From: an uncultured Gammaproteobacteria bacterium
GTDB taxonomy: Bacteria; Patescibacteriota; Microgenomatia; UBA10105; UBA927
Length of the DNA: 52,254 nucleotides
Assembly: GCA_964533995.1 (NCBI GenBank)
Contig: CAZHOQ010000001.1
Span: 1-52,254 of the forward strand
Reading direction: 5' to 3'
The translations under genes and the position numbers were made by a program. The notes beneath the pieces were generated by a model. The model was not told where the DNA came from. It worked only from the letters and a program-made list of their open reading frames with translations, and searched no databases. Of the stretch, positions 41,687 to 52,254 are shown piece after piece (the stretch's first letter is position 1; every line of letters starts with the position of its first letter).

Positions 41687-41964
41687 ACTGCGAACCTACG
41701 GTTCTTACCCTTTCACGAAAATACATACAAAAAAGGAGCGAATGCTCCATTTTTGTATGTGCTCCGGGCAATGGACAGTATACGAAATTACTATACGTTA
41801 CTATAAGTAATTATATTTCTTCATCATTGGCTATTTTTGGGTATTTTCTTTGACTGATGATATGTCACTTGCCAGTTAGTATTGTCTGGATGAAATTAGA
41901 GATATAATTACTTCAAGAATTCTATCGTCGAGATATTTCGTCGGTATTGAAGTGATAAAGGAAA

Positions 41965-44900
41965 TTGAGATTGCATGATATGCAGCATAAATATAAATGG
42001 AGAAGATATTGGTCTCCCCCAGATGCGCAAATAAGCCTATCGGATGGAGGTTTTTTGCATGACCCGATGGATGGTTTTGGTAAATATGTAAATTCAAGCC
42101 TGATTGCCATCGATGTAAACAATTTAACAAACTGTCTAGTTCTTCTTGGGGAGCCTGGTATAGGAAAAAGCATTGAGATACGCGGACTCTTTGACTCGAC
42201 TCTTGACGTAAAGGGTGCAGATAAGGTTTCCTGGCTCGATTTAAGAGACTTCATGACCCCAGAGCATTTTATAGAAGAACTGGAGAGTCATTCTGGTTAC
42301 CAAGAATGGGTGAAGGGAACATCCTCTTTTTATTTATTTTTGGATAGTTTTGATGAAGGTGTCTTTTCATTTCCTCATTTCGCAAAGGCGTTTGAGCACC
42401 TTTTAACTCGTCATAAAAGTAGGATTGAGGATTTATTTCTTAGAATATCTTGTCGTACAGCAGTGTGGCCTTCCTATTTTGAAGATGGTTTACGTGTCCT
42501 TTGGGATGTAGAAGGGTTTAATAAATATGAACTATGCCCACTAATTAAGGAAGACGTAATAACTGCTCTAACCTCAAGAGGTCTTGATGCTCAGAAATTT
42601 GCCTTAGAGGTAAGCGAAAAAAATGTTGCAGGATTAGCAGGAAAACCACTCACACTCAACATGTTAATTGATGTTTTTGAAAGAGGAGGCTGTTTACCAT
42701 CACGAAAAGTTGAAATATATATGCAGGGATGCAGCTTGCTCTTGCAGGAGCCTGATGCCTCTAAAAATACTAATCCTTCAACTAAACCAAAACTTGATTT
42801 AGTTCAGCGTTTAGCCATAGCTGAAAGAATAGCGGCTTCTACAGTAATTAGTGGAAAATCTGCAGTTTTACTGAACGAAACAAGCACGGCTAATGATGGG
42901 GAACTTAAATTGATTGAGCTACAAGGCAATGAAATTGTTGACGATACACTAATTAGAACCGGGGAAGATCAAGTAAAAGAAGTTCTTAACACGGGCCTAT
43001 TTTCTTCTAGGGGTGATGGAAAGATGGGATGGGCGCACCAAACCTATGGGGAATTTTTGGCTGCAAGATATCTAGCCCGCCACAAACTGAATTGGAAACA
43101 AATTCGAAGTTTACTATTTCAAGACCCGCTAGGACGCGGCGCTTTTCAGATAGTCCCCCAGCTATATGAAGTTTGTGCGTGGTTTGCCAGTTTGGATTCT
43201 AGTTTTTTTGATAATGCAGTTTTGCTCGATCCTGAGTTTTTGATGTTAAGTGACGCCAATGTCACGACAGATCTTCAGAGAAAAATGTTAACGGAGCAAC
43301 TGTTAGTTCGATTGGCAAACGGCGAGCTGCTCGACAGGTGGGAGACGTTTAATTACATTAACTATCGAAAATTAAACAATTTAGATATCGCAAACCAGTT
43401 GAAATTTTATATTACTGATGTAACAAAAGGAGTCGTTGTAAGAAGAGCAGCTATTGATATAGCCTCTGCATGCTCTGTAGAGTCTCTTGATGAAGTGTTT
43501 GTTTCTATTGCACTAAACGATAAAGAAAAGCTTGTGATTAGAGCTAGAGCTATAAAAGCCATTGCCGAGATTGGAAGTGAAAGCGCAAAAGAGGCACTTA
43601 GGCCTCTTGTAGATTCAGGTTTTCGGGAAGACCCCGAAGACGAATTAAAAGGAGTGACTCTTCAAGCTTTGTGGCCAGGACATATTGCCACGGATAAACT
43701 ATTCTCCCTATTAACACCACCCAAGCGTCATAGTTTCCTTGGAGCATATTATAGCTTCACAGACAAGTATTTGGTTGGTGAAATTTCTGCAAAAGATATT
43801 GTAATTGCTTTAGATTGGGTAAAAGAGAACGCTGTTCATGAAAGATCAATTGAATATTATTTGAGGAAATTAGCTGATGCAATAATGCTAAAGGCGTTTG
43901 ATAGTTTTACTATCCCTGGGGTTGAAGAGCGATTCTCTCAAATTGTTTATGAGCGGCTTAAAAAGTTTGAGGAAGTAATCGGAGGGCATGCCGTTGACGA
44001 TGAAATAGTCAGTTCTTTTCAAAAGTCTCTTGAGGATGAGAATGACAAAAGAAGGCAACTCATTAAATCTGTGGTCAATCTTCTTATCAGTGAAAATACA
44101 ACAGGCAAGAGGAGGGGGTACTTCTTGTGGTCCCATGGCAAAGTTAAAATTGTATTTTCCAAGGATTTACCCTGGTTGATCCAATGGTTGGGTCAAGAAA
44201 AAAATGAAGAAATCCAACAAATACTCGCCGAAGTAATACAGAGAGTTTTTAATATTAAAAGTTCTAATGATATAGAGTTACTTATTCAGGCAAGAAATAA
44301 GAATAGATTCTTAGAACGAGAAACTACCTATTGGTTTGAACCATTAAGGCTAGATTCTCAGGCCGCCAAAGATCAAAAAAAACAGTGGAGGCAAGAACAA
44401 GAATGGGCGAAGAAGAGAGAAAAGGATGAAAAAATGGAGATACTAAAAATAGTATCTCCAAGTAAAATTAAAGAACACCTTGTTAAGTCTGAGAGGGGTG
44501 ATGCAGATTCTTGGTGGTTATTAAATAATGCTTTGTGTATGTATCAGCATGAGCTCTCAGAAGAGGATATTCGTGAAATGCCAGGCTGGAAGGTGTTAGA
44601 TGCGGATACACAAGAACGAATAATTAAGGTTGGAAAATCGTTTATATTGCAGCAAGAGTCAAAGCCAGATATATGGTTGGGAAAAAATAAAATATATTTT
44701 CCTGCCATGTCAGGATATAGAGCATTAAAAATATATTTTGAGAGAGAAAAGAGCTTCGTCGAATCATTAGGAAAGGAAGTATGGAAAAAATGGGCGCCGA
44801 TAATTATCGGCATGCCGTTTATCTCCAATGACCCAAAGAATGGAGAACTAATTACATTAGCATATAAAAATGCTCCGGATGAGATTATCTCCACACTAGA

Positions 44901-46242
44901 TGTCTTAATAGATGAGGATGAGCAAAAGCACGGAAGCCTATTTATGCTTAGCCTACTTGATGGATGCGTTGATGAAAAGATGGTGATTTTTCTATTGAAT
45001 AAAGCAAAGAAACCTAAATTTAGATCTAGCGCAGTTGGTGATATCCTTCAATTTTTATTGAAGCACAAGGTACAACTCGCGAAAGATTACGTAAAGTCGC
45101 TTATTCAAGTTCCATTATCAGAAGATAAAGATGAACGCGAACTTAGTTTAATAGCAGCTGTCTCACTGCTTTGGCATGCTGAACAAGTAGATTGGATTTA
45201 TTTATGGAAACTCATTCAAAATGATAGAGAATTTGGGCGATCACTAATTGAAAGAGCTCATGATAATCCTTTGCGTGGTTCAGGTATGTTGCCAAAGCTT
45301 ACTGAAGTTCAATTGTCTGAGCTATATTTATGGCTTATGAAAGATTTTCCTCCAGAAAAATATTTTCAACCAGAGGGAGGTGGAACAGTTACACCAGAGA
45401 TATCAATCGGTGAATGGAGAGATTCGGTTTTGCGGGTCCTAATGGATAAGGGAACGGTAGAGGCTTGTAGGCAGATAGAAAGAATTGCCTCTGCATTACC
45501 ACAACACTCCTGGATAAAAGAATTCACTTTGATACAAGCAAGGCGTATAACGCTTGAAAAATCATGGCAGTCTCTTTCCGTAGGCCAAATACTCAAGTTG
45601 GTTGAGAATCAGGAGCTGAGATTGATAAATACTCCGGACGAACTGTTAGATATTGTTATTGATTCCCTTGAGGCTTTAGGAATTAAATTACAAAAAGGAG
45701 AGCAACCACAAGTAATCGACCTTTGGAACGAAAAACGAGTGACCGAGGTAATCTCCGGAAAACGAAACATTTATTTTTTGTCTTCGCCCAAGGATGAAGG
45801 TCGTTTATCAGATAAGATTAAAACGCACTTACAGGAAAGTTTGGTAAACAGGGGTGTTGTTGTAAATAGAGAAGTAGAAATTAAGCGTGGAAGTGAGACA
45901 GATATCCATATCAGTTCTTTCAGTAGGGATGATCTAGAAAGACCAAAGGACTTAATGAAAGTGATAATAGAAGTAAAAGGATGTTGGAACGCCGAGCTTG
46001 AAACTGCTATGGAGAAGCAATTAGTTGATAGATATCTTACAGAAGCAGATTGTTCGCGAGGAGTTTACTTAATAGGTTGGTTTGTTTGTGATCGATGGAA
46101 TGATCCAAGCGATGGGAGGCTTAAGAAATCTCCTAAATCTGACATTATGACAACGAAAGAAAAATATAAGCTTCAAGCTGTCGAATTATCAAAAAAGGAA
46201 TCTCTTAGAGTGGAGTCTATAGTTTTAGATTGTAGACTATAG
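41965..46242 (+). CDS. NACHT-family STAND NTPase with helical (HEAT/ARM-like) repeat region and C-terminal PD-(D/E)xK-like module; candidate antiphage NLR-like protein
   Basis: Walker A GEPGIGKS (42148-42171). Walker B FYLFLDSFDE (42328-42357). GKPLTLNML and WAHQTYGEFLAARYL (NACHT winged-helix signature). HEAT-like RARAIKAIAEIGSESAKEALRPLV. C-terminal TD(1313)IHIS...VIIE(1336)VK(1338)G. The listed start is a TTG; the first in-frame ATG is at 41980. Confidence 0.8.
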   Translation: MRLHDMQHKYKWRRYWSPPDAQISLSDGGFLHDPMDGFGKYVNSSLIAIDVNNLTNCLVLLGEPGIGKSIEIRGLFDSTLDVKGADKVSWLDLRDFMTPEHFIEELESHSGYQEWVKGTSSFYLFLDSFDEGVFSFPHFAKAFEHLLTRHKSRIEDLFLRISCRTAVWPSYFEDGLRVLWDVEGFNKYELCPLIKEDVITALTSRGLDAQKFALEVSEKNVAGLAGKPLTLNMLIDVFERGGCLPSRKVEIYMQGCSLLLQEPDASKNTNPSTKPKLDLVQRLAIAERIAASTVISGKSAVLLNETSTANDGELKLIELQGNEIVDDTLIRTGEDQVKEVLNTGLFSSRGDGKMGWAHQTYGEFLAARYLARHKLNWKQIRSLLFQDPLGRGAFQIVPQLYEVCAWFASLDSSFFDNAVLLDPEFLMLSDANVTTDLQRKMLTEQLLVRLANGELLDRWETFNYINYRKLNNLDIANQLKFYITDVTKGVVVRRAAIDIASACSVESLDEVFVSIALNDKEKLVIRARAIKAIAEIGSESAKEALRPLVDSGFREDPEDELKGVTLQALWPGHIATDKLFSLLTPPKRHSFLGAYYSFTDKYLVGEISAKDIVIALDWVKENAVHERSIEYYLRKLADAIMLKAFDSFTIPGVEERFSQIVYERLKKFEEVIGGHAVDDEIVSSFQKSLEDENDKRRQLIKSVVNLLISENTTGKRRGYFLWSHGKVKIVFSKDLPWLIQWLGQEKNEEIQQILAEVIQRVFNIKSSNDIELLIQARNKNRFLERETTYWFEPLRLDSQAAKDQKKQWRQEQEWAKKREKDEKMEILKIVSPSKIKEHLVKSERGDADSWWLLNNALCMYQHELSEEDIREMPGWKVLDADTQERIIKVGKSFILQQESKPDIWLGKNKIYFPAMSGYRALKIYFEREKSFVESLGKEVWKKWAPIIIGMPFISNDPKNGELITLAYKNAPDEIISTLDVLIDEDEQKHGSLFMLSLLDGCVDEKMVIFLLNKAKKPKFRSSAVGDILQFLLKHKVQLAKDYVKSLIQVPLSEDKDERELSLIAAVSLLWHAEQVDWIYLWKLIQNDREFGRSLIERAHDNPLRGSGMLPKLTEVQLSELYLWLMKDFPPEKYFQPEGGGTVTPEISIGEWRDSVLRVLMDKGTVEACRQIERIASALPQHSWIKEFTLIQARRITLEKSWQSLSVGQILKLVENQELRLINTPDELLDIVIDSLEALGIKLQKGEQPQVIDLWNEKRVTEVISGKRNIYFLSSPKDEGRLSDKIKTHLQESLVNRGVVVNREVEIKRGSETDIHISSFSRDDLERPKDLMKVIIEVKGCWNAELETAMEKQLVDRYLTEADCSRGVYLIGWFVCDRWNDPSDGRLKKSPKSDIMTTKEKYKLQAVELSKKESLRVESIVLDCRL

Positions 46243-46289: not shown

Positions 46290-46676
46290 TTAGCTTGGAT
46301 CAAGCTCTGATAGCAAGTATTTTTTTAGTGTATCAAGATATTTGTTCATTTTTTGTTGGTCTTTTGGTCGTTCATGTTTTCCTCCGAGATCACCTCGCCT
46401 TTCGATTTTATCTACATAAACTGCTTTGTCTTGAAGATTAAAAAAGTATACAAGCCTAAAACCGCCGCTTGACCCTCGATTACTATCAGGATCAGGTATT
46501 CGTCCATCCCAAATTTCAAAAATATTGTGTGGAGAGCGAAAAAACAATTTTGTTCTATTTGTTTGGTATCGCTGTACTTGTTGAGCCCAGTCTTTGATTC
46601 TATTTTTTAGATCCTCCGATAGCCCGAGTTCCTCCGAGTCTTTTATGTATTGAGGTGTCTGATTATATGTCCACAT
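46290..46676 (-). CDS. RelE/ParE-superfamily-like toxin candidate (partner of the Panacea antitoxin)
   Basis: IPDPDSNRGSSGGFRLVYFFNLQDKAVYVDKIERRGD resembles the RelE/HigB core (GK-SGG-[YF]-R-hIY...h.h..I..R.D). It lies 14 nt downstream of the antitoxin gene, with a GAGGTG RBS. Confidence 0.55.
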   Translation of the reverse strand: MWTYNQTPQYIKDSEELGLSEDLKNRIKDWAQQVQRYQTNRTKLFFRSPHNIFEIWDGRIPDPDSNRGSSGGFRLVYFFNLQDKAVYVDKIERRGDLGGKHERPKDQQKMNKYLDTLKKYLLSELDPS

Positions 46677-46690
46677 GAGGCACCTCGAAG

Positions 46691-47185
46691 TTATGAAGTG
46701 AAAAATTCGATATCTTTTGCGTAATTAAGATCGACTTCATTATAGAGATCTGAGTAAAACCACGGAGCTTCAAGATGCGTTTGATTAACTATTTTTCCGG
46801 TTGGCCATAGTGTAAATTCGTGACAAATTTTATCTAATAAAGTTTTTTCATATTCCGTAAAAACGGATAAATCAGGATCATCTTTTAATTCAAATTTAAT
46901 CATGCCATTTTCTTCGTAGGCGACACGTTCAGCGCTAAGCCGTCCGTTTTCTACTAATTTACTAATTATTTCTTCGGAAAATTTTGGCACAGGACCATAA
47001 TCTAGGTGTATATATTTGTCGCCTGTCACAGTAGCTGATTTATCTCTAAAAGAGATAAAGTCAAGGTAATAGAGAAGTTTATTTAGTTTTGTTGCTCCAA
47101 GGAATTTGTTATTGCAATACTTTACAAAGTACAGAATAGCGTTTTCGTACTTAGAGGTTTTTAATTCTTTCGGCAATGGGGTCAT
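46691..47185 (-). CDS. Panacea (DUF4065/SocA-like) domain antitoxin candidate
   Basis: GATKLNKLLYYLDFISFRDKSATVTGDKYIHLDYGPVP is the Panacea-domain core. Trimmed to ATG 47185, with GGAGG at 47193-47197 (complement). Confidence 0.7.
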   Translation of the reverse strand: MTPLPKELKTSKYENAILYFVKYCNNKFLGATKLNKLLYYLDFISFRDKSATVTGDKYIHLDYGPVPKFSEEIISKLVENGRLSAERVAYEENGMIKFELKDDPDLSVFTEYEKTLLDKICHEFTLWPTGKIVNQTHLEAPWFYSDLYNEVDLNYAKDIEFFTS

Positions 47186-47280
47186 ATTCGTACCTCCATA
47201 CTTGATTATAGACCACTCTATAAAGGACAACAAGTAAAGTCGTTGCGATCATTAACGATATAGATCATAATATCTCTACA

Positions 47281-47365: not shown

Positions 47366-47390
47366 AAAGCGAGTGGAGGGTCGTCCCTTT

Positions 47391-47603
47391 ATGTTGAAAA
47401 AACCGGTCAACTTACTCATATTAGTCATTCTTCTTGCCTTCTGGACTCCAGGTATTATTTTCTTTATTGAAATGGCTCAGGAAAATGAAACTCATCCGAT
47501 GATTATTACCGCAGTTGTCATATGGTCGCTGGGTTTAATGTTGTATTGTGCTTATTACAAAGAATTCCATAAGTGGTACAGAAACAAATCCGGAAGGCGG
47601 TAA
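47391..47603 (+). CDS. Small two-TM membrane protein
   Basis: ATG 47391 with GGAGG at 47375-47379; the listed start at 47373 is a GTG. Two hydrophobic helices. Confidence 0.5.
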   Translation: MLKKPVNLLILVILLAFWTPGIIFFIEMAQENETHPMIITAVVIWSLGLMLYCAYYKEFHKWYRNKSGRR

Positions 47604-47605
47604 AT

Positions 47606-48253
47606 ATGCAGCACGCAATATCAGTTGCAGTATCAATCCTCATGTTTGTGCTCGGTAATCCGGCGTGGATGATTGCGCAGCAATATTCCAGGCAGGAAAT
47701 AACTAAAGGGACCAAGGTTGTTGATTATTCACCTGACCATATCCCTAGTGAAAAAATTGAAGATGGTTTGTGCTGGACACGATCCATAGCTGCGCCCAGA
47801 AATGAAAAGGCGTGGCGCTGTCAGGGGCCTGAAAGCACTGCGCCTGGTAGCATTACGCCGTTATTTGATCCCTGTTTTGCATTGGATAACCTTAGCGTCG
47901 TCTGCGGTGTTGACCCCGACAAAACAGATGCCGGTTTGGAGTTGAAGCTGCGTGAGCGGCTCCCCAAGGAAGACATATCAGCAGGTACGAATACTCCCGG
48001 GTTCTGGCGTATCCGTCTGGCTACCGGAGCGTTGTGTGCTCCCCATACCGGCACTATGGGCATGACAAACGAAAAGCGCTTCCTGCTTTATTCTTGTGAT
48101 GACGGAACGGGCATATACGAAGACGGCCTGCACGAATCGGATAGTAAGTACGAAGCGGAGAACGTTACTTACGGGCAGACGGACAATCCGGAAGACGGCG
48201 ATTTTGTAGTGCGCAAGGTTGAAAAAGTAGCGGTTAAAGAAGCCTGGAGGTAA
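47606..48253 (+). CDS. Secreted Cys-rich hypothetical protein
   Basis: ATG 47606 lies 2 nt after the upstream stop. Signal-like MQHAISVAVSILMFVLGNPAWMIAQQ. 8 Cys in the mature part. Confidence 0.55.
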   Translation: MQHAISVAVSILMFVLGNPAWMIAQQYSRQEITKGTKVVDYSPDHIPSEKIEDGLCWTRSIAAPRNEKAWRCQGPESTAPGSITPLFDPCFALDNLSVVCGVDPDKTDAGLELKLRERLPKEDISAGTNTPGFWRIRLATGALCAPHTGTMGMTNEKRFLLYSCDDGTGIYEDGLHESDSKYEAENVTYGQTDNPEDGDFVVRKVEKVAVKEAWR

Positions 48254-48264
48254 AATCCGGACAG

Positions 48265-49047
48265 ATGGATATTCAGAGGATTGAAATTGATATTACGGAT
48301 CCGAAGTATTTAAGCAGATTGGCTTATCTTGTCGATCGGGATGATTTCCTTGATGATGTGGCTGATATCCGTAAGAAAATCGGATTGAATGTCTTGCTTC
48401 GAGAAGATCAGATCAACACATGGCAGGAAAAAGAAGTCAAAAACGGCTACCTCGAGAAGGACAAATACACCAATGAAAAAGGAGTTACAAGCTATTACAC
48501 TTCCTGGCTCCGGTCCGAAAAATTGGTGATAGATTTGCTTCGAAAATACAAAAGACACTGGGAATACTTTATGCCGGTTTATTATGCCGTCCTGACCGGT
48601 CGAATCACTCTGCAGACTTTATCGAATGCTGCATCCTGCGGGTTGATATACCCTGAACAATATTACCGGCAGGTAATGTTAGGAGACAAAGAGCCACAGC
48701 TAGCTATCTTTCTGACGCCAGAAACCACAAGAAAAGAGGTGATTGCCGCGTATGATCACCATTTTCGCCAGACAGTTGATGAGTATAAGAGTCGAACGAG
48801 CTATTCTAGTCCGAAATATTTGGACACGATAACGAATATCAAACGGGATAGGGACTGGTACTGGAAACACAAAATTGGAACAACAAGTTATCAAAAATTA
48901 GCGCTGGAAAAATTAGGGCTAAAACAAAAAAGTGATGCTATCAGCACCTTCAGAAATCCGGTTGCTGAACTAGCGGATACGATTCGAAAGGCCATTAAAC
49001 AGTATGAGAGAAAATTAAACACTCCGATTGCTGTTCCGGAAACTTAG
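48265..49047 (+). CDS. Hypothetical protein
   Basis: 260-aa ORF with GGAGG upstream. No family recognised. Confidence 0.5.
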   Translation: MDIQRIEIDITDPKYLSRLAYLVDRDDFLDDVADIRKKIGLNVLLREDQINTWQEKEVKNGYLEKDKYTNEKGVTSYYTSWLRSEKLVIDLLRKYKRHWEYFMPVYYAVLTGRITLQTLSNAASCGLIYPEQYYRQVMLGDKEPQLAIFLTPETTRKEVIAAYDHHFRQTVDEYKSRTSYSSPKYLDTITNIKRDRDWYWKHKIGTTSYQKLALEKLGLKQKSDAISTFRNPVAELADTIRKAIKQYERKLNTPIAVPET

Positions 49048-49104
49048 CGTTTCGGTAGCCCTCCGCTCCCCACAGATTCAAAACCTCGATAAGCTACCTG
49101 TGTA

Positions 49105-49284
49105 ATGTTATCAGCACAAGCGATTGGTGAATATCAGGATATCTATAAGCGGAAGTTCGGGTCGGAAATTTCGGCGGATGAAGCAAAAGCGCAGGGAGAA
49201 AAGTTACTGAGGGTATTCAGGATTATTTACCAGCCGATACCGAACCAGATTGAAATGAAAACGTATGAACCAGAAAAGATTTAA
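49105..49284 (+). CDS. Small hypothetical ORF (59 aa), just below the ORF-track cutoff
   Basis: Manual translation gives MLSAQAIGEYQDIYKRKFGSEISADEAKAQGEKLLRVFRIIYQPIPNQIEMKTYEPEKI*. It looks helical and charged, and overlaps the next ORF by 20 nt. Confidence 0.3.
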   Translation: MLSAQAIGEYQDIYKRKFGSEISADEAKAQGEKLLRVFRIIYQPIPNQIEMKTYEPEKI

Positions 49285-49501
49285 CCAGCTCGTTTCGTAC
49301 CGAAGAAAGTACCTCTCTATTCTCCGGGCTGTCCACATGAAGTGGGCAGAGACGAATAACTATTTTGCGGACGGGTATGTCGATTGCACCGAAATAGTCG
49401 ATCCTCTCTATCCCTACTATCCGACTCTTACACAGTACGAATCCCTGGTGAGGACGAAAGAATTCCGACACAGGAAGCGTGAGGCATTTTCCCGAGGCTA
49501 G
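49265..49501 (+). CDS. Hypothetical protein
   Basis: 78-aa ORF in the co-directional gene string. No family recognised. Confidence 0.35.
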   Translation: MNQKRFNQLVSYRRKYLSILRAVHMKWAETNNYFADGYVDCTEIVDPLYPYYPTLTQYESLVRTKEFRHRKREAFSRG

Positions 49502-49543
49502 AGATTCCGTCAGAAGAATCAAATCCCTTTGGAAAACAGAATA

Positions 49544-49774
49544 ATGATGGATAACTCAATTGAAACTACGGATCTGTATTTAGGCGCACTGTGGTATGCG
49601 AAAGGCATGAAATTTACAGGCATCCGGCGGGAAGGCAGACAGTGCTGGTTTGTATTCACCAACAAGAAAGAGTGTCAGGTAATGGAGGTTCGGTTTTATG
49701 CACAGGAGGAGACGGTCGTTGCAAAGGCATACGCCGATGCGATCAGGACATTAAAGGGCTTGGTGTTTCATTAA
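49544..49774 (+). CDS. DUF5659-like domain protein
   Basis: TTDLYLGALWYAKGMKFTGIRREGRQCWFVFTNK...AKAYADAIRTLKGLV fits my recollection of the DUF5659 pattern, which is common on phage/plasmid-like elements. The listed start is a TTG; the first ATG is at 49544. Confidence 0.55.
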   Translation: MMDNSIETTDLYLGALWYAKGMKFTGIRREGRQCWFVFTNKKECQVMEVRFYAQEETVVAKAYADAIRTLKGLVFH

Positions 49775-49782
49775 GGATTCTT

Positions 49783-50154
49783 ATGCAGAAAGGCATTGAA
49801 ATTAACATCCGATCGATTAGTACTAGTGTTACGATTGCTGATCAGGGGAACATTTTGGCTTGGGTAGAGCTTCGATATGTCGATAATCAAGGCGTCGATG
49901 TGATTATCATCCGAGGGATGACAGTAAAAAAGAAGTACTCGCCGAGTCATAAAAAAGAGTGGTTATCCGTTGATTTTCCGGGTTATCCCAGAAAAAACGG
50001 CAAATTCTTCAAGTCGTTGTATCTCCCGGATAAAGATCATTGGCAATTGGTTACTCAATCCGTACTGGAAGAGTTCCATGAAGCTACCGGCGGGAAATAT
50101 GTTGGGTTAAACGCACCAAAGGAGGATGTAAATCCGGATGAGGTACCCTTCTGA
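49783..50154 (+). CDS. Hypothetical protein, possibly SpoVG-like fold
   Basis: The internal ATG 49783 lies right after the upstream stop. IEINIRSIS...GNILAWVELRYVD..VIIIRGMTV...LSVDFPGYPRKNGKFFKSLYLPDKDHWQLVTQSVLEEF aligns loosely with the SpoVG layout. Confidence 0.4.
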   Translation: MQKGIEINIRSISTSVTIADQGNILAWVELRYVDNQGVDVIIIRGMTVKKKYSPSHKKEWLSVDFPGYPRKNGKFFKSLYLPDKDHWQLVTQSVLEEFHEATGGKYVGLNAPKEDVNPDEVPF

Positions 50155-50567: not shown

Positions 50568-52254
50568 ATGAACAAATATTATATCTACTGCCGTAAATCA
50601 TCGGAAAGCGAGGACCGGCAGGTGTTGTCCATCGAGTCTCAGACCAGGGAACTCATTGAAGTTGCAAAACGGCGCGAGCTTCAGATCATGCGGACTGTTT
50701 CGGAGTCCAAGTCTGCGAAGGATTTGGGAAGACCGGGATTCAGCGAGCTGATTAACGCAATCGAGTCGAAAGAAATAAACAGCATTCTTGTTTGGCATCC
50801 GGATCGACTCTCCCGTAACCCGCAGGATGCAGCGGCCATTATTTCCTTAATGGATAACGGCAAGCTTTCTGAGGTTTGCACCCCAACCCAGTCGTTTCGA
50901 AATAACCCGATGGATAAGTTCATGCTCGGTTTCTTTATGATGCAGGCAAAGTTCGAAAACGATCATAAAGGTGAAAACGTGAAGGAGGGATTAAAGACGA
51001 AAGCGGAGAAAGGTTGGCTACCCTCCGGAGCAAAGCCCGGCTACATGAACGATAAGTATGCGGAGAAAGGAAACAAGACTATCAGAAAGGATCCTGATCG
51101 GTTCCCGCTCATCAGACGATGCTGGGATTACATGCTGAACGGTGCCTACACCCCTGCGAAGATCCTGCGGCTACTGAACGAGGAGTGGGGTTATACGACA
51201 CCGGTCCGGAAATCCATCGGCGGAAAGCCCATGAGCCGCAGTCAGATCTATACCATGTTTGCTGACCCGTTCTATTACGGACGCTTCGAGTATCCGGTTG
51301 GCAGTGGTGTATGGCACGACGGCAAACATGAACCGATGGTTACGAAAGCGGAGTTCGATCGGGTGCAGGTGCTCATTCACCGGCCGGGATCCCCGCGACC
51401 GAAGAACAAAGAATTTGCTCATACAGGTCTTATGCGGTGCGGTGAATGTTCGGCGTTTATTACGGCTGAGGAAAAATGGCAGGTCATATGTCCCGATTGC
51501 GACTACAAATTCACCGCAGTTAACCGAACCGCCTGTCCGAAATGCAGGAAAGCAGTTGAGGATATGGATGACCCGACGGTCCGGCATTATATTTACTACC
51601 ACTGCACCAAGCGGAAGAACCCGAATTGTACCCAGGGCAGTATTCAGGAAGGAAAGCTGGAGGAACAGATCGATGCGTTTCTTGCCAAAATCGGCATCAC
51701 GGAAGAGTTCAAGCACTGGGCGATCAAATACCTCAACGAACTGAACGACCAGGAAACGGAATCCCGGACGGCATCCCTTCATTCACTGCAGGAGAACTAC
51801 AACCGTCTGCAGGAACAACTGGATAATCTTTTGAAGCTCAAGATATCGTCAGGTAATACCGACGGATCCCTGCTCTCTGACGGAGAATTCCGAAGCCAAA
51901 AAGAACGGCTGACGGTTGAGAAAGACCGGATAAAGGAGTTACTGGACGACACCGACGGCAGAGGCAATCGATGGATGGATACGGCGGAGAAAGCCTTCGA
52001 TTTCGCGGTTCATGCGCGGTATTGGTTTGCGCACGGATCGCCGGCCGAGAAGCGGGAGATCATGGTAGCAATCGGTTCGAACCTCGTATTCCAAAATAAA
52101 ATGCTGCGTCTGGACCTGCAGAAACCATACTGTTATCTGGAAGAAGCCATAAAAGCGGAACCGACGATATCCCAAATGTTCGAACCCGGAAAGGAGAAGG
52201 TATCAACAGCCGAAATGGAAGCCGTGTGGGCTCAAAATCTATCAATGCTCCCCC
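50568..52254 (+). CDS. Large serine recombinase (resolvase domain + recombinase domain + zinc ribbon + coiled coil), 3' end outside the window
   Basis: It is not in the ORF track because no stop is reached. Manual translation gives MNKYYIYCRKSSESEDRQVLSIESQ (catalytic Ser context), HPDRLSRN, FYYGRFEY and the Cys cluster CGECSAFITAEEKWQVICPDCDYKF...CPKCRK...YYHCTKRKNPNC. The frame is open to base 52254. Confidence 0.9.
   Translation, partial: MNKYYIYCRKSSESEDRQVLSIESQTRELIEVAKRRELQIMRTVSESKSAKDLGRPGFSELINAIESKEINSILVWHPDRLSRNPQDAAAIISLMDNGKLSEVCTPTQSFRNNPMDKFMLGFFMMQAKFENDHKGENVKEGLKTKAEKGWLPSGAKPGYMNDKYAEKGNKTIRKDPDRFPLIRRCWDYMLNGAYTPAKILRLLNEEWGYTTPVRKSIGGKPMSRSQIYTMFADPFYYGRFEYPVGSGVWHDGKHEPMVTKAEFDRVQVLIHRPGSPRPKNKEFAHTGLMRCGECSAFITAEEKWQVICPDCDYKFTAVNRTACPKCRKAVEDMDDPTVRHYIYYHCTKRKNPNCTQGSIQEGKLEEQIDAFLAKIGITEEFKHWAIKYLNELNDQETESRTASLHSLQENYNRLQEQLDNLLKLKISSGNTDGSLLSDGEFRSQKERLTVEKDRIKELLDDTDGRGNRWMDTAEKAFDFAVHARYWFAHGSPAEKREIMVAIGSNLVFQNKMLRLDLQKPYCYLEEAIKAEPTISQMFEPGKEKVSTAEMEAVWAQNLSMLP

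Follow-up and report, generated by a model that had tools for sequence, protein, structure and literature searches.

Erebus and Hypnos were reportedly named by van den Berg and colleagues (2024, Cell Host Microbe 32:1427), and a published description of Erebus, which presents it as a system of phage defence, calls its mechanism "unclear." The two names have been brought together under the definition "Avs10 (Erebus/Hypnos/bNACHT64)" (Lee et al., bioRxiv 10.64898/2026.01.04.697583; Nature 2026;657:735). Avs10 is triggered by the phage major capsid protein, a protein of the HK97 fold around whose A-domain the helical sensor wraps, and the cell death that Avs10 causes is lost upon mutation or deletion of the effector domain (Lee et al., Nature 2026;657:735). 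Here we analyze an open reading frame (ORF) of 1425 codons in a 52,254-nucleotide stretch of DNA, referred to as the window, from an uncultured Gammaproteobacteria bacterium (GenBank assembly GCA_964533995.1, contig CAZHOQ010000001.1), which an earlier note on the same DNA had singled out as a candidate defence gene. On balance, its product appears to be a single-protein, NLR-like antiphage sensor of the Erebus/Hypnos NACHT superfamily that travels as cargo of an integrative island and carries a nuclease-type output at its C-terminus. Residue numbers count throughout from the TTG codon at position 41965, that is, in the 1425-codon frame.

Relation to EruA and the NACHT module

The protein matches the NCBIfam profile EruA (NF058535; E=2.4e-79, 267.9 bits) in one continuous, colinear stretch that pairs residues 53–1392 with positions 22–1290 of the 1318 in the profile, and the profile HyoA (NF058534; E=3.3e-57, 194 bits) in three separate stretches over the NACHT and sensor parts. 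Both profiles bear the title "NACHT domain-containing antiphage protein." Judging from the names and from the grouping by Lee et al., EruA is presumably the Erebus protein and HyoA the Hypnos protein; neither EruA nor HyoA was found as a name for phage defence in the literature searched. Six more divergent relatives of the protein score 145–245 bits against EruA, and some of them reach the very end of the profile. By these profile matches, the protein appears to be a remote member of the Erebus/Hypnos (Avs10) family, whose antiphage role has been validated, and not a new kind of system.

The NACHT module itself is defined by a set of motifs whose conservation was counted in an alignment of 117 full-length homologues (Table 1). 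The Walker A motif, G62-E-P-G-I-G-K68-S, satisfies the P-loop pattern GxxxxGK[ST], and D127-S128-F129-D130-E131 fits D[GAS]hDE, the Walker B signature that separates NACHT from other STAND proteins (Kibby et al., 2023). A K227-P-L-T-L motif is also present, invariant or nearly so. Winged-helix motifs of NACHT proteins take an hxHxxxxEFLAA-type form, and the segment W356 to Y369 carries such a motif. The histidine of this motif contacts ADP in NLRC4, where it is H443 (Kibby et al., 2023), and H358 would be its counterpart. Furthermore, several sources name homologues of the protein "NACHT family NTPase" or "NACHT domain-containing protein." Taken together, the D[GAS]hDE signature, the winged-helix histidine, the EruA and HyoA matches and the homologue names assign the nucleoside triphosphatase (NTPase), as far as sequence features can, to the NACHT-type STAND proteins. 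The NACHT/STAND signature proposed in the earlier note is hence upheld in its Walker A, Walker B and winged-helix elements, and every motif quoted there was recovered at its place, invariant or nearly so among the homologues. Searches of PDB sequences, by phmmer and with the family profile, did not detect solved NLRs and returned only artificial HEAT-type alphaRep proteins and generic Clp/Hsp104 P-loops.

The conserved segment that precedes the P-loop, residues 1–55, is probably not an effector but the leading stretch of the NACHT module. Signatures upstream of the NTPase have been described for such modules (Kibby et al., 2023), and an N-terminal amyloid or adaptor effector was therefore rejected for this segment, which is contiguous with the P-loop and is kept whatever module lies at the C-terminus.

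The C-terminus as an output slot

In a genome scan, many relatives align with the query only as far as residue ~1212–1227, and the boundary of a C-terminal module is therefore placed there. The boundary follows the invariant W1201 and a conserved "...W-x-P-x-x-P-x-E-(I/L)-L" junction, at which relatives that share the scaffold (residues ~10–1216) bear other tails. These tails include a TIR domain (L021; TIR_2, 3.9e-15), CHAT caspase-like proteases (L019, 2.7e-9; L032, 3.9e-7), a class III nucleotide cyclase (L075; Guanylate_cyc, 4.1e-15) and, with a weak match (7.5e-5), an alpha/beta-hydrolase-like domain (L031). Three other relatives (L018, L039, and L079) end in a single hydrophobic stretch that was read by eye as a transmembrane helix, and one (L056) has no tail after the scaffold. 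In four cyanobacterial relatives (L015, L017, L022, and L050), the last ~45 residues form a short conserved tail, "KQNPTLRKRL..GGKAFIFEALQKASDQWWVAPFVKAIEAGVKGE", instead of the module; this tail could be an adaptor, and no neighbouring ORF with the same motif was found that might be its partner.

In immune proteins, domains of the TIR, CHAT and cyclase types typically act as effectors or generate signals. Because the module alternates with such domains at one junction, it is very probably an effector as well, in agreement with the earlier proposal of an effector-like module situated after the repeats. A 1634-residue relative from an Enterobacterales metagenome-assembled genome (L062, 7028–11929) bears an N-terminal phosphoesterase and no C-terminal module. 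The phosphoesterase resembles DefensePredictor systems DS-8 and DS-9 (NF053861, 4e-14), and the scaffold can therefore also take an N-terminal effector.

The module is widespread. Among representative clusters at 50% identity, its profile matches 3,801, and for 1,604 the match reaches E≤1e-30; the module lies at the extreme C-terminus in 150 of 150 proteins among the matches listed. In a local hidden Markov model search over all ORFs of 94 sequences, comprising the window and the fetched loci, it was seen only inside NACHT relatives. The suggestion that the gene represents an undescribed single-gene defence architecture could hence not be sustained: the protein is colinear with EruA and HyoA, its module recurs in ~3,800 clusters, and C-terminal effectors in bacterial NACHT proteins had already been noted (Kibby et al., 2023).

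A nuclease-like core in the predicted structure of the module

Modelled alone with AlphaFold2, residues 1217–1425 attain a predicted local distance difference test score (pLDDT) of 92.2 and a predicted template-modelling score (pTM) of 0.88, and a longer model of residues 1170–1425 (pLDDT 86.4) displays an identical order of secondary-structure elements. In module numbering, the predicted core consists of a helix at 62–80, strands at 83–86/89–91, 98–105 and 111–123, a second helix at 132–144 and a strand at 149–156; an N-terminal helix and a variable beta-hairpin precede it, and a helix and the last strand come after. Its order, alpha-beta-beta-beta-alpha-beta, is that of the restriction-endonuclease-like topology.

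The residues that a nuclease of this type would use are conserved well beyond the close homologues. The earlier note had remarked that D1313 and E1336-V-K1338 are spaced as in PD-(D/E)xK nucleases and had asked how far these residues, and K68 of the Walker A motif, are kept in homologues. Both points were answered in favour of the proposal. Among the close homologues, D1313 is found in 115 of 117 sequences, E1336 in 116 and K1338 in 114, with K68 present in all 117, and the D/E/K residues are predicted to lie on the canonical positions of the core. A second set of 31 module sequences, with 29–49% identity to the query, was drawn from Bacteroidota, Cyanobacteria, Firmicutes, Actinomycetota, Planctomycetota, Acidobacteriota, Proteobacteria and other groups. 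In all of these divergent modules, E1278, R1302, E1303, V1304, D1313, E1336, K1338, Q1352, L1353, Y1357, G1366 and Y1368 are invariant. The core of the module is also the most conserved part of the protein, with a mean column entropy of 1.29 versus 1.4–1.6 in the NTPase.

Three cysteines of the module, C1340, C1363 and C1375 (nucleotides 45982–46089), are nearly invariant in the close subfamily, where they stand in the motifs "KGCW," "C-x-x-G" and "WF-x-C," and are not conserved in distant relatives. They could form a metal site or a disulphide specific to the subfamily.

Conflicting evidence and alternative roles of the module

Several results weigh against the interpretation of the protein as an Erebus/Hypnos-type sensor with a nuclease output. 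The equivalog cut-offs of both family profiles are missed by a wide margin (267.9 versus 1000 bits for EruA, 194 versus 1200 bits for HyoA). Function is therefore not simply transferable from either family, and the shared layout at scores below the cut-off marks the protein as a distant relative, and not as EruA or HyoA itself. The Pfam NACHT model PF05729, for which the earlier note had foreseen a significant match, is silent both for the whole protein (E≤1) and for residues 1–479 (E≤10), the sole weak Pfam matches in the NTPase region being AAA_22 and nSTAND3 (E 0.03–0.09), and PADLOC v2 returns no match for the protein either. The miss of PF05729 reflects the limits of a single model, since the defining motifs themselves are present. 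For the module, Foldseek searches with the 256- and 209-residue models, run twice against the PDB and once against BFVD, gave no match at E≤1e-3; the structural comparison suggested in the earlier note recovered no known nuclease at this threshold. Pfam nuclease families were matched by one of 30 close modules (PDDEXK_3, E=0.008) and by none of the 31 divergent ones, and the module profile found chance matches only among PDB sequences. Lastly, two homologues (P0009 and P0048) have mostly housekeeping neighbours.

Pfam searches with the whole protein and with three fragments detected no nuclease family, and an hhalign comparison of the module profile with a single E. coli YraN sequence was uninformative, with a probability of 0.2%. 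The only restriction-endonuclease-like folds that Foldseek listed were 3dnx (E=7.9e-3) and the Mus81 structure 4p0q (E=1.4e-2, root-mean-square deviation 8.1 Å over 120 columns), both at chance level. The Ras/Rab-like GTPases that headed the Foldseek lists were rejected as spurious (template-modelling score ~0.23, root-mean-square deviation ~16 Å).

Since Foldseek and Pfam do not confirm the fold, the identity of the module is put forward as a deduction from the predicted structure and the conserved residues, by which it is probably a PD-(D/E)xK-type nuclease. Although the module is modelled at pLDDT 92, it is matched by none of the Pfam families, PDB structures or predicted viral structures searched, and, as judged from these searches of domain and structure libraries, the module itself is what stays new in this system. 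There is a small chance that it is an effector domain of a new structural type, whether as a highly diverged branch of the restriction-endonuclease fold or as some other enzyme.

The invariant R1302-E1303 pair and the Q-L-x-x-x-Y spacing are atypical of PD-(D/E)xK enzymes. Together with the lack of a consistent Pfam family across modules and of a Foldseek match of any kind at the threshold used, despite the high confidence of the model, they lend some weight to an alternative in which the protein is an Erebus/Hypnos-type defence protein and its C-terminal module is not a nuclease. The module would then be another enzyme, or a non-catalytic alpha/beta domain that tethers the protein to a host component or contributes to sensing or regulation, and the output would be produced by a different activity or supplied in trans by a partner. 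Such an arrangement would fit the C-termini described as "hybrid" (Kibby et al., 2023). We regard this alternative as unlikely. The invariant E, D, ExK and Q residues sit on the canonical secondary-structure elements of the model, the module shares its slot with the TIR, CHAT and cyclase effectors of relatives, its rank as the most conserved region is what would be expected of a catalytic domain, and no conserved neighbouring partner gene was seen in the homologue neighbourhoods examined. A nuclease-type output is hence retained as the preferred reading of the module.

Middle region and integrity of the gene

The region between the NACHT module and the C-terminal module, some 800 residues in length, is probably helical and is the presumed repeat sensor. 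It includes the most variable part of the protein (residues 601–800, with mean column entropy up to 2.1) and closes at the conserved W1201-x-(P)-...-(I/L)-L junction. A clear HEAT-like repeat had been described here in the earlier note. A HEAT-like character is suggested by a Pfam HEAT_2 match at residues 492–569, by matches of the family profile to artificial HEAT-type alphaRep proteins among PDB sequences at positions 470–549, and by the precomputed PF13646 matches that many homologues carry; the adjective "clear" has to be tempered, given that the HEAT_2 score (25.4 bits in the whole protein, 27.5 bits in a fragment) lies just under the cut-off of 27.7 bits.

The gene is real and probably functional. 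As the earlier note had described, its 1425-codon frame lies in an AT-rich segment: the G+C fraction falls from ~0.52 to 0.36–0.44 over about 41.7–51 kb of the window. At the local G+C of ~39%, stops should make up ~6.5% of random codons, so that simple arithmetic from composition gives a probability of ~e^-95 for a frame of this length, and the frame therefore cannot be a product of chance. More than 100 proteins of the same length align to it across their full length, with identities from 73% to 35%. That the gene is decaying or has lost its function, or that the frame arose by chance in AT-rich DNA, could be argued from the uncertainty of the start codon (TTG 41965 or ATG 41980) and from nothing else. 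With 1425 codons open, catalytic-type residues all intact and full-length identity to this many equal-length proteins, we give that explanation almost no weight. The start uncertainty itself leans to one side. An identical protein in the databases (P0001) has 1420 residues and begins at the in-frame ATG 41980, and conservation across the homologue family begins at Y10; for these reasons ATG 41980 is likelier than TTG 41965 to be the true start, which would make the product 1420 residues long.

The island and the neighbourhoods of homologues

The gene lies near the left end of the AT-rich segment, close to a perfect hairpin that is likely a bidirectional terminator and would mark the probable left edge of an island (Table 1). 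A large serine recombinase, which runs off the end of the window, marks the island as an integrative element and probably mobilizes it, in line with the recombinase-bearing AT-rich island described in the earlier note. The toxin-antitoxin pair that the same note had placed beside the gene was recovered in part. The SocA/Panacea antitoxin domain is well supported, and its partner, a 128-residue ORF with a "GGFRLVYFF" motif, offers a RelE hint alone (E=0.15) and no PADLOC or NCBIfam match. The two may constitute a Panacea-type toxin-antitoxin pair with an unclassified toxin, and they are convergent with the NACHT gene. Six consecutive ORFs on the forward strand (47373–50154, 76–260 residues) find no match in Pfam, PADLOC or NCBIfam and could be further cargo of the element. 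None of nine neighbours is matched by PADLOC v2, and the window was negative in scans for tRNA genes and Rfam families. According to NCBIfam, no neighbour in the window is a named antiphage partner; the gene therefore appears to act alone.

Table 1. Features of the NACHT gene and of its surroundings, in positions of the window.
Feature	Position	Strand	Basis
Bidirectional-terminator candidate: G+C-rich perfect 5-bp hairpin with T-runs on both strands	41735..41748	.	Located at the G+C drop from ~52% to ~39%
Whole ORF: NACHT NTPase, helical/HEAT-like middle, C-terminal effector-like module	41965..46242	+	1425 codons from TTG
Conserved N-terminal segment, residues 1–55 (Y10, W12, R14, W16, G29, L31, D33, P34)	41965..42129	+	Alignment
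NACHT NTPase module, residues ~56–420: nucleotide-binding, helical, winged-helix domains	42130..43224	+	Motif conservation, NCBIfam NACHT-containing families, homologue names
Walker A, G62-E-P-G-I-G-K68-S69	42148..42171	+	G62, E63, P64, G65, G67, K68 invariant (117/117)
Walker B, F125-L-D127-S-F-D130-E131	42337..42357	+	D127, D130, E131 invariant
Winged-helix motif, W356-A-H358-Q-T-Y-G-E363-F-L-A-A-R-Y369	43030..43071	+	H358 in 116/117
Middle region, residues 421–1216, presumed repeat sensor	43225..45612	+	Entropy profile; colinear with EruA profile
HEAT-like repeats, residues 492–569	43438..43671	+	Pfam HEAT_2 near threshold; alphaRep/HEAT matches among PDB sequences
Swappable C-terminal module, residues 1217–1425, putative PD-(D/E)xK-type nuclease effector	45613..46239	+	Model, conservation, replacement in relatives
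E1278, opening helix alpha1	45796..45798	+	Invariant in alignments A1, A2, A4; place from model
R1302-E1303-V1304 on beta1	45868..45876	+	Invariant
D1313, directly before strand beta2, "PD" position	45901..45903	+	Alignment, model
E1336-V-K1338 on strand beta3, "(D/E)xK" position	45970..45978	+	Alignment, model
Q1352-L-V-D-R-Y1357 on helix alpha2	46018..46035	+	Q, L, Y invariant; model
128-residue ORF downstream of the Panacea gene, candidate toxin	46290..46676	-	RelE hint (E=0.15)
SocA/Panacea antitoxin-domain gene	46691..47233	-	Pfam PF13274, E=2.4e-17, 64.3 bits versus 25.7 cut-off
Large serine recombinase, runs off window end	50568..52254	+	Resolvase 2e-27, Recombinase 9.8e-7, Zn_ribbon_recom 1e-4

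The full-length relatives are spread over many phyla of bacteria and reach a few archaea, and they are also encoded on 29 plasmids and on a few IMG/VR viral contigs; in a scan of GTDB representative genomes, the best match reached 36%. Several of these homologues reside in defence or mobile contexts, the kind of surroundings that the earlier note had expected of them, and some lie among housekeeping genes. The Moorella sp. Hama-1 homologue (P0042) sits in a BREX-like cluster that comprises BrxC/PglY, a methyltransferase, DUF3644, the gene itself, an SNF2 helicase and PglZ, with AbiEii and transposases nearby. The gene (L081 10001–14218, AP024620.1) is placed there between the methyltransferase/DUF3644 and the SNF2 helicase/PglZ genes, and this gene order nests an NLR-like gene inside a second defence system. 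Another homologue (P0027) is accompanied by a HEPN protein, a diversity-generating retroelement, prophage capsid and portal genes, and a pair formed by SNF2 and an MmeI-type methylase/restriction protein. On its metagenomic contig (L085, 1.37 Mb), the retroelement consists of a reverse transcriptase and bAvd, the capsid and portal genes are of the SU10 type, and the HEPN_LA2681 protein overlaps the 3' end of the P0027 gene. P0053 adjoins a cluster of DUF499, a DUF1156-methylase and SNF2, and P0005 has an HTH_17/MerR-type gene upstream, followed by housekeeping genes.

P0006 and P0007 are the two closest relatives whose context shows mobility genes. Both accompany copper-resistance cargo, the former with a relaxase and a coupling protein and the latter with a serine recombinase. 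The loci of the closest relatives (L088 and L095, 59–65% identity) encode a multicopper oxidase and a CsoR-type repressor, and L095 also encodes a P-type ATPase. Mobility functions on the elements at these loci comprise either a relaxase with a coupling protein or a serine recombinase, and their layout resembles that of the window, in which a few kb separate the NACHT gene from a serine recombinase.

These surroundings bear on whether the protein, as a STAND/NACHT signalling protein, serves mainly some purpose other than phage defence, such as competition between mobile elements or the addiction and maintenance of the island. The window and the closest relatives keep serine recombinases, relaxase and coupling protein, and metal-resistance cargo rather than classic defence genes, some homologues have housekeeping neighbours, and defence and non-defence STAND clades are known to be interspersed (Lee et al., Nature 2026;657:735). 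Mobile elements commonly carry defence genes, however, and other homologues lie in BREX or restriction-modification clusters or beside HEPN and AbiEii genes. The only named relatives of the protein are validated antiphage proteins, and the TIR, CHAT and cyclase domains that serve as alternative tails are typical immune effectors. A main role outside phage defence thus seems improbable, more so than a C-terminal module without nuclease activity, and an antiphage function remains the preferred interpretation.

Proposed mechanism and implications

Beyond the anatomy, conservation, C-terminal modularity and neighbourhoods observed here, we infer a mechanism for which Avs10 serves as the model, and which extends to the ligand, the oligomerization, the nuclease activity and an abortive outcome. 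The middle repeat region would bind a phage protein, for which the analogy with Avs10 makes the major capsid protein of the HK97 fold the likeliest candidate. Binding would free the NACHT module from an ADP-bound, H358-locked state, allowing it to exchange nucleotide and to oligomerize. Oligomerization would then gather the C-terminal modules and switch on a metal-dependent PD-(D/E)xK-type nuclease activity that relies on E1278, D1313, E1336 and K1338. The degradation of DNA by this nuclease would stop the phage and probably kill the cell, as in abortive infection.

The analysis places a 1,420-residue "hypothetical protein" in a validated immune family and maps its parts. It also indicates that this branch of bacterial NLRs uses the C-terminus as its output slot, which is filled by at least five module types (nuclease-like, TIR, CHAT, cyclase, and transmembrane/hydrolase-like). 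If the module is a structurally new domain, it would represent an unrecognized output domain of the Erebus-like branch, and the polarity of that branch, with the effector after the sensor, would reverse the textbook layout of NLRs. The nuclease-like module, if confirmed, would supply the missing effector step for the Erebus family. The module is also missing from current domain libraries, and several thousand proteins would be better annotated with a profile built from alignment A4. How bacterial NLR immunity is understood in general is left unchanged by these results.

Comparison with known systems

Erebus EruA is the described protein that most directly resembles the window protein, sharing with it a NACHT module, a long middle region, a C-terminal module and a similar length; the window protein differs in being, by its profile scores, a distant paralogue or a member of a sister subfamily. 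With Hypnos HyoA and Avs10 it has in common the organization as a single large STAND protein, and Avs10 is the model adopted here for its mechanism, whereas the match to HyoA is split into three stretches and capsid sensing by the window protein is proposed on analogy.

The bNACHT25 protein and other NACHT proteins with restriction-endonuclease effectors share the D[GAS]hDE signature, the winged-helix histidine and an output through a DNase of the restriction-endonuclease fold, which is putative in the window protein. In bNACHT25, mutation of the histidine causes auto-activation, and mutation of the nuclease rescues it (Kibby et al., 2023). The order of parts is different, however, since the Mrr-like nuclease of bNACHT25 is N-terminal and the candidate nuclease of the window protein follows the repeats. 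Avs1–4 and Avs7 likewise combine an effector, a STAND NTPase and a helical-repeat sensor, exchange effectors between relatives, and may share with the window protein the logic of oligomerization-dependent nuclease activation; they belong to other STAND clades, have other sensors, and carry N-terminal Mrr, Cap4 or other effectors. Lastly, the animal proteins NLRC4, NLRP3 and NOD2 display the same NACHT module, Walker B acidic pair and winged-helix histidine, with a repeat sensor C-terminal to them, but animal NLRs employ N-terminal adaptor domains and LRR sensors where the window protein has presumed repeats of a HEAT-like or helical kind and, after them, an enzyme-like module.

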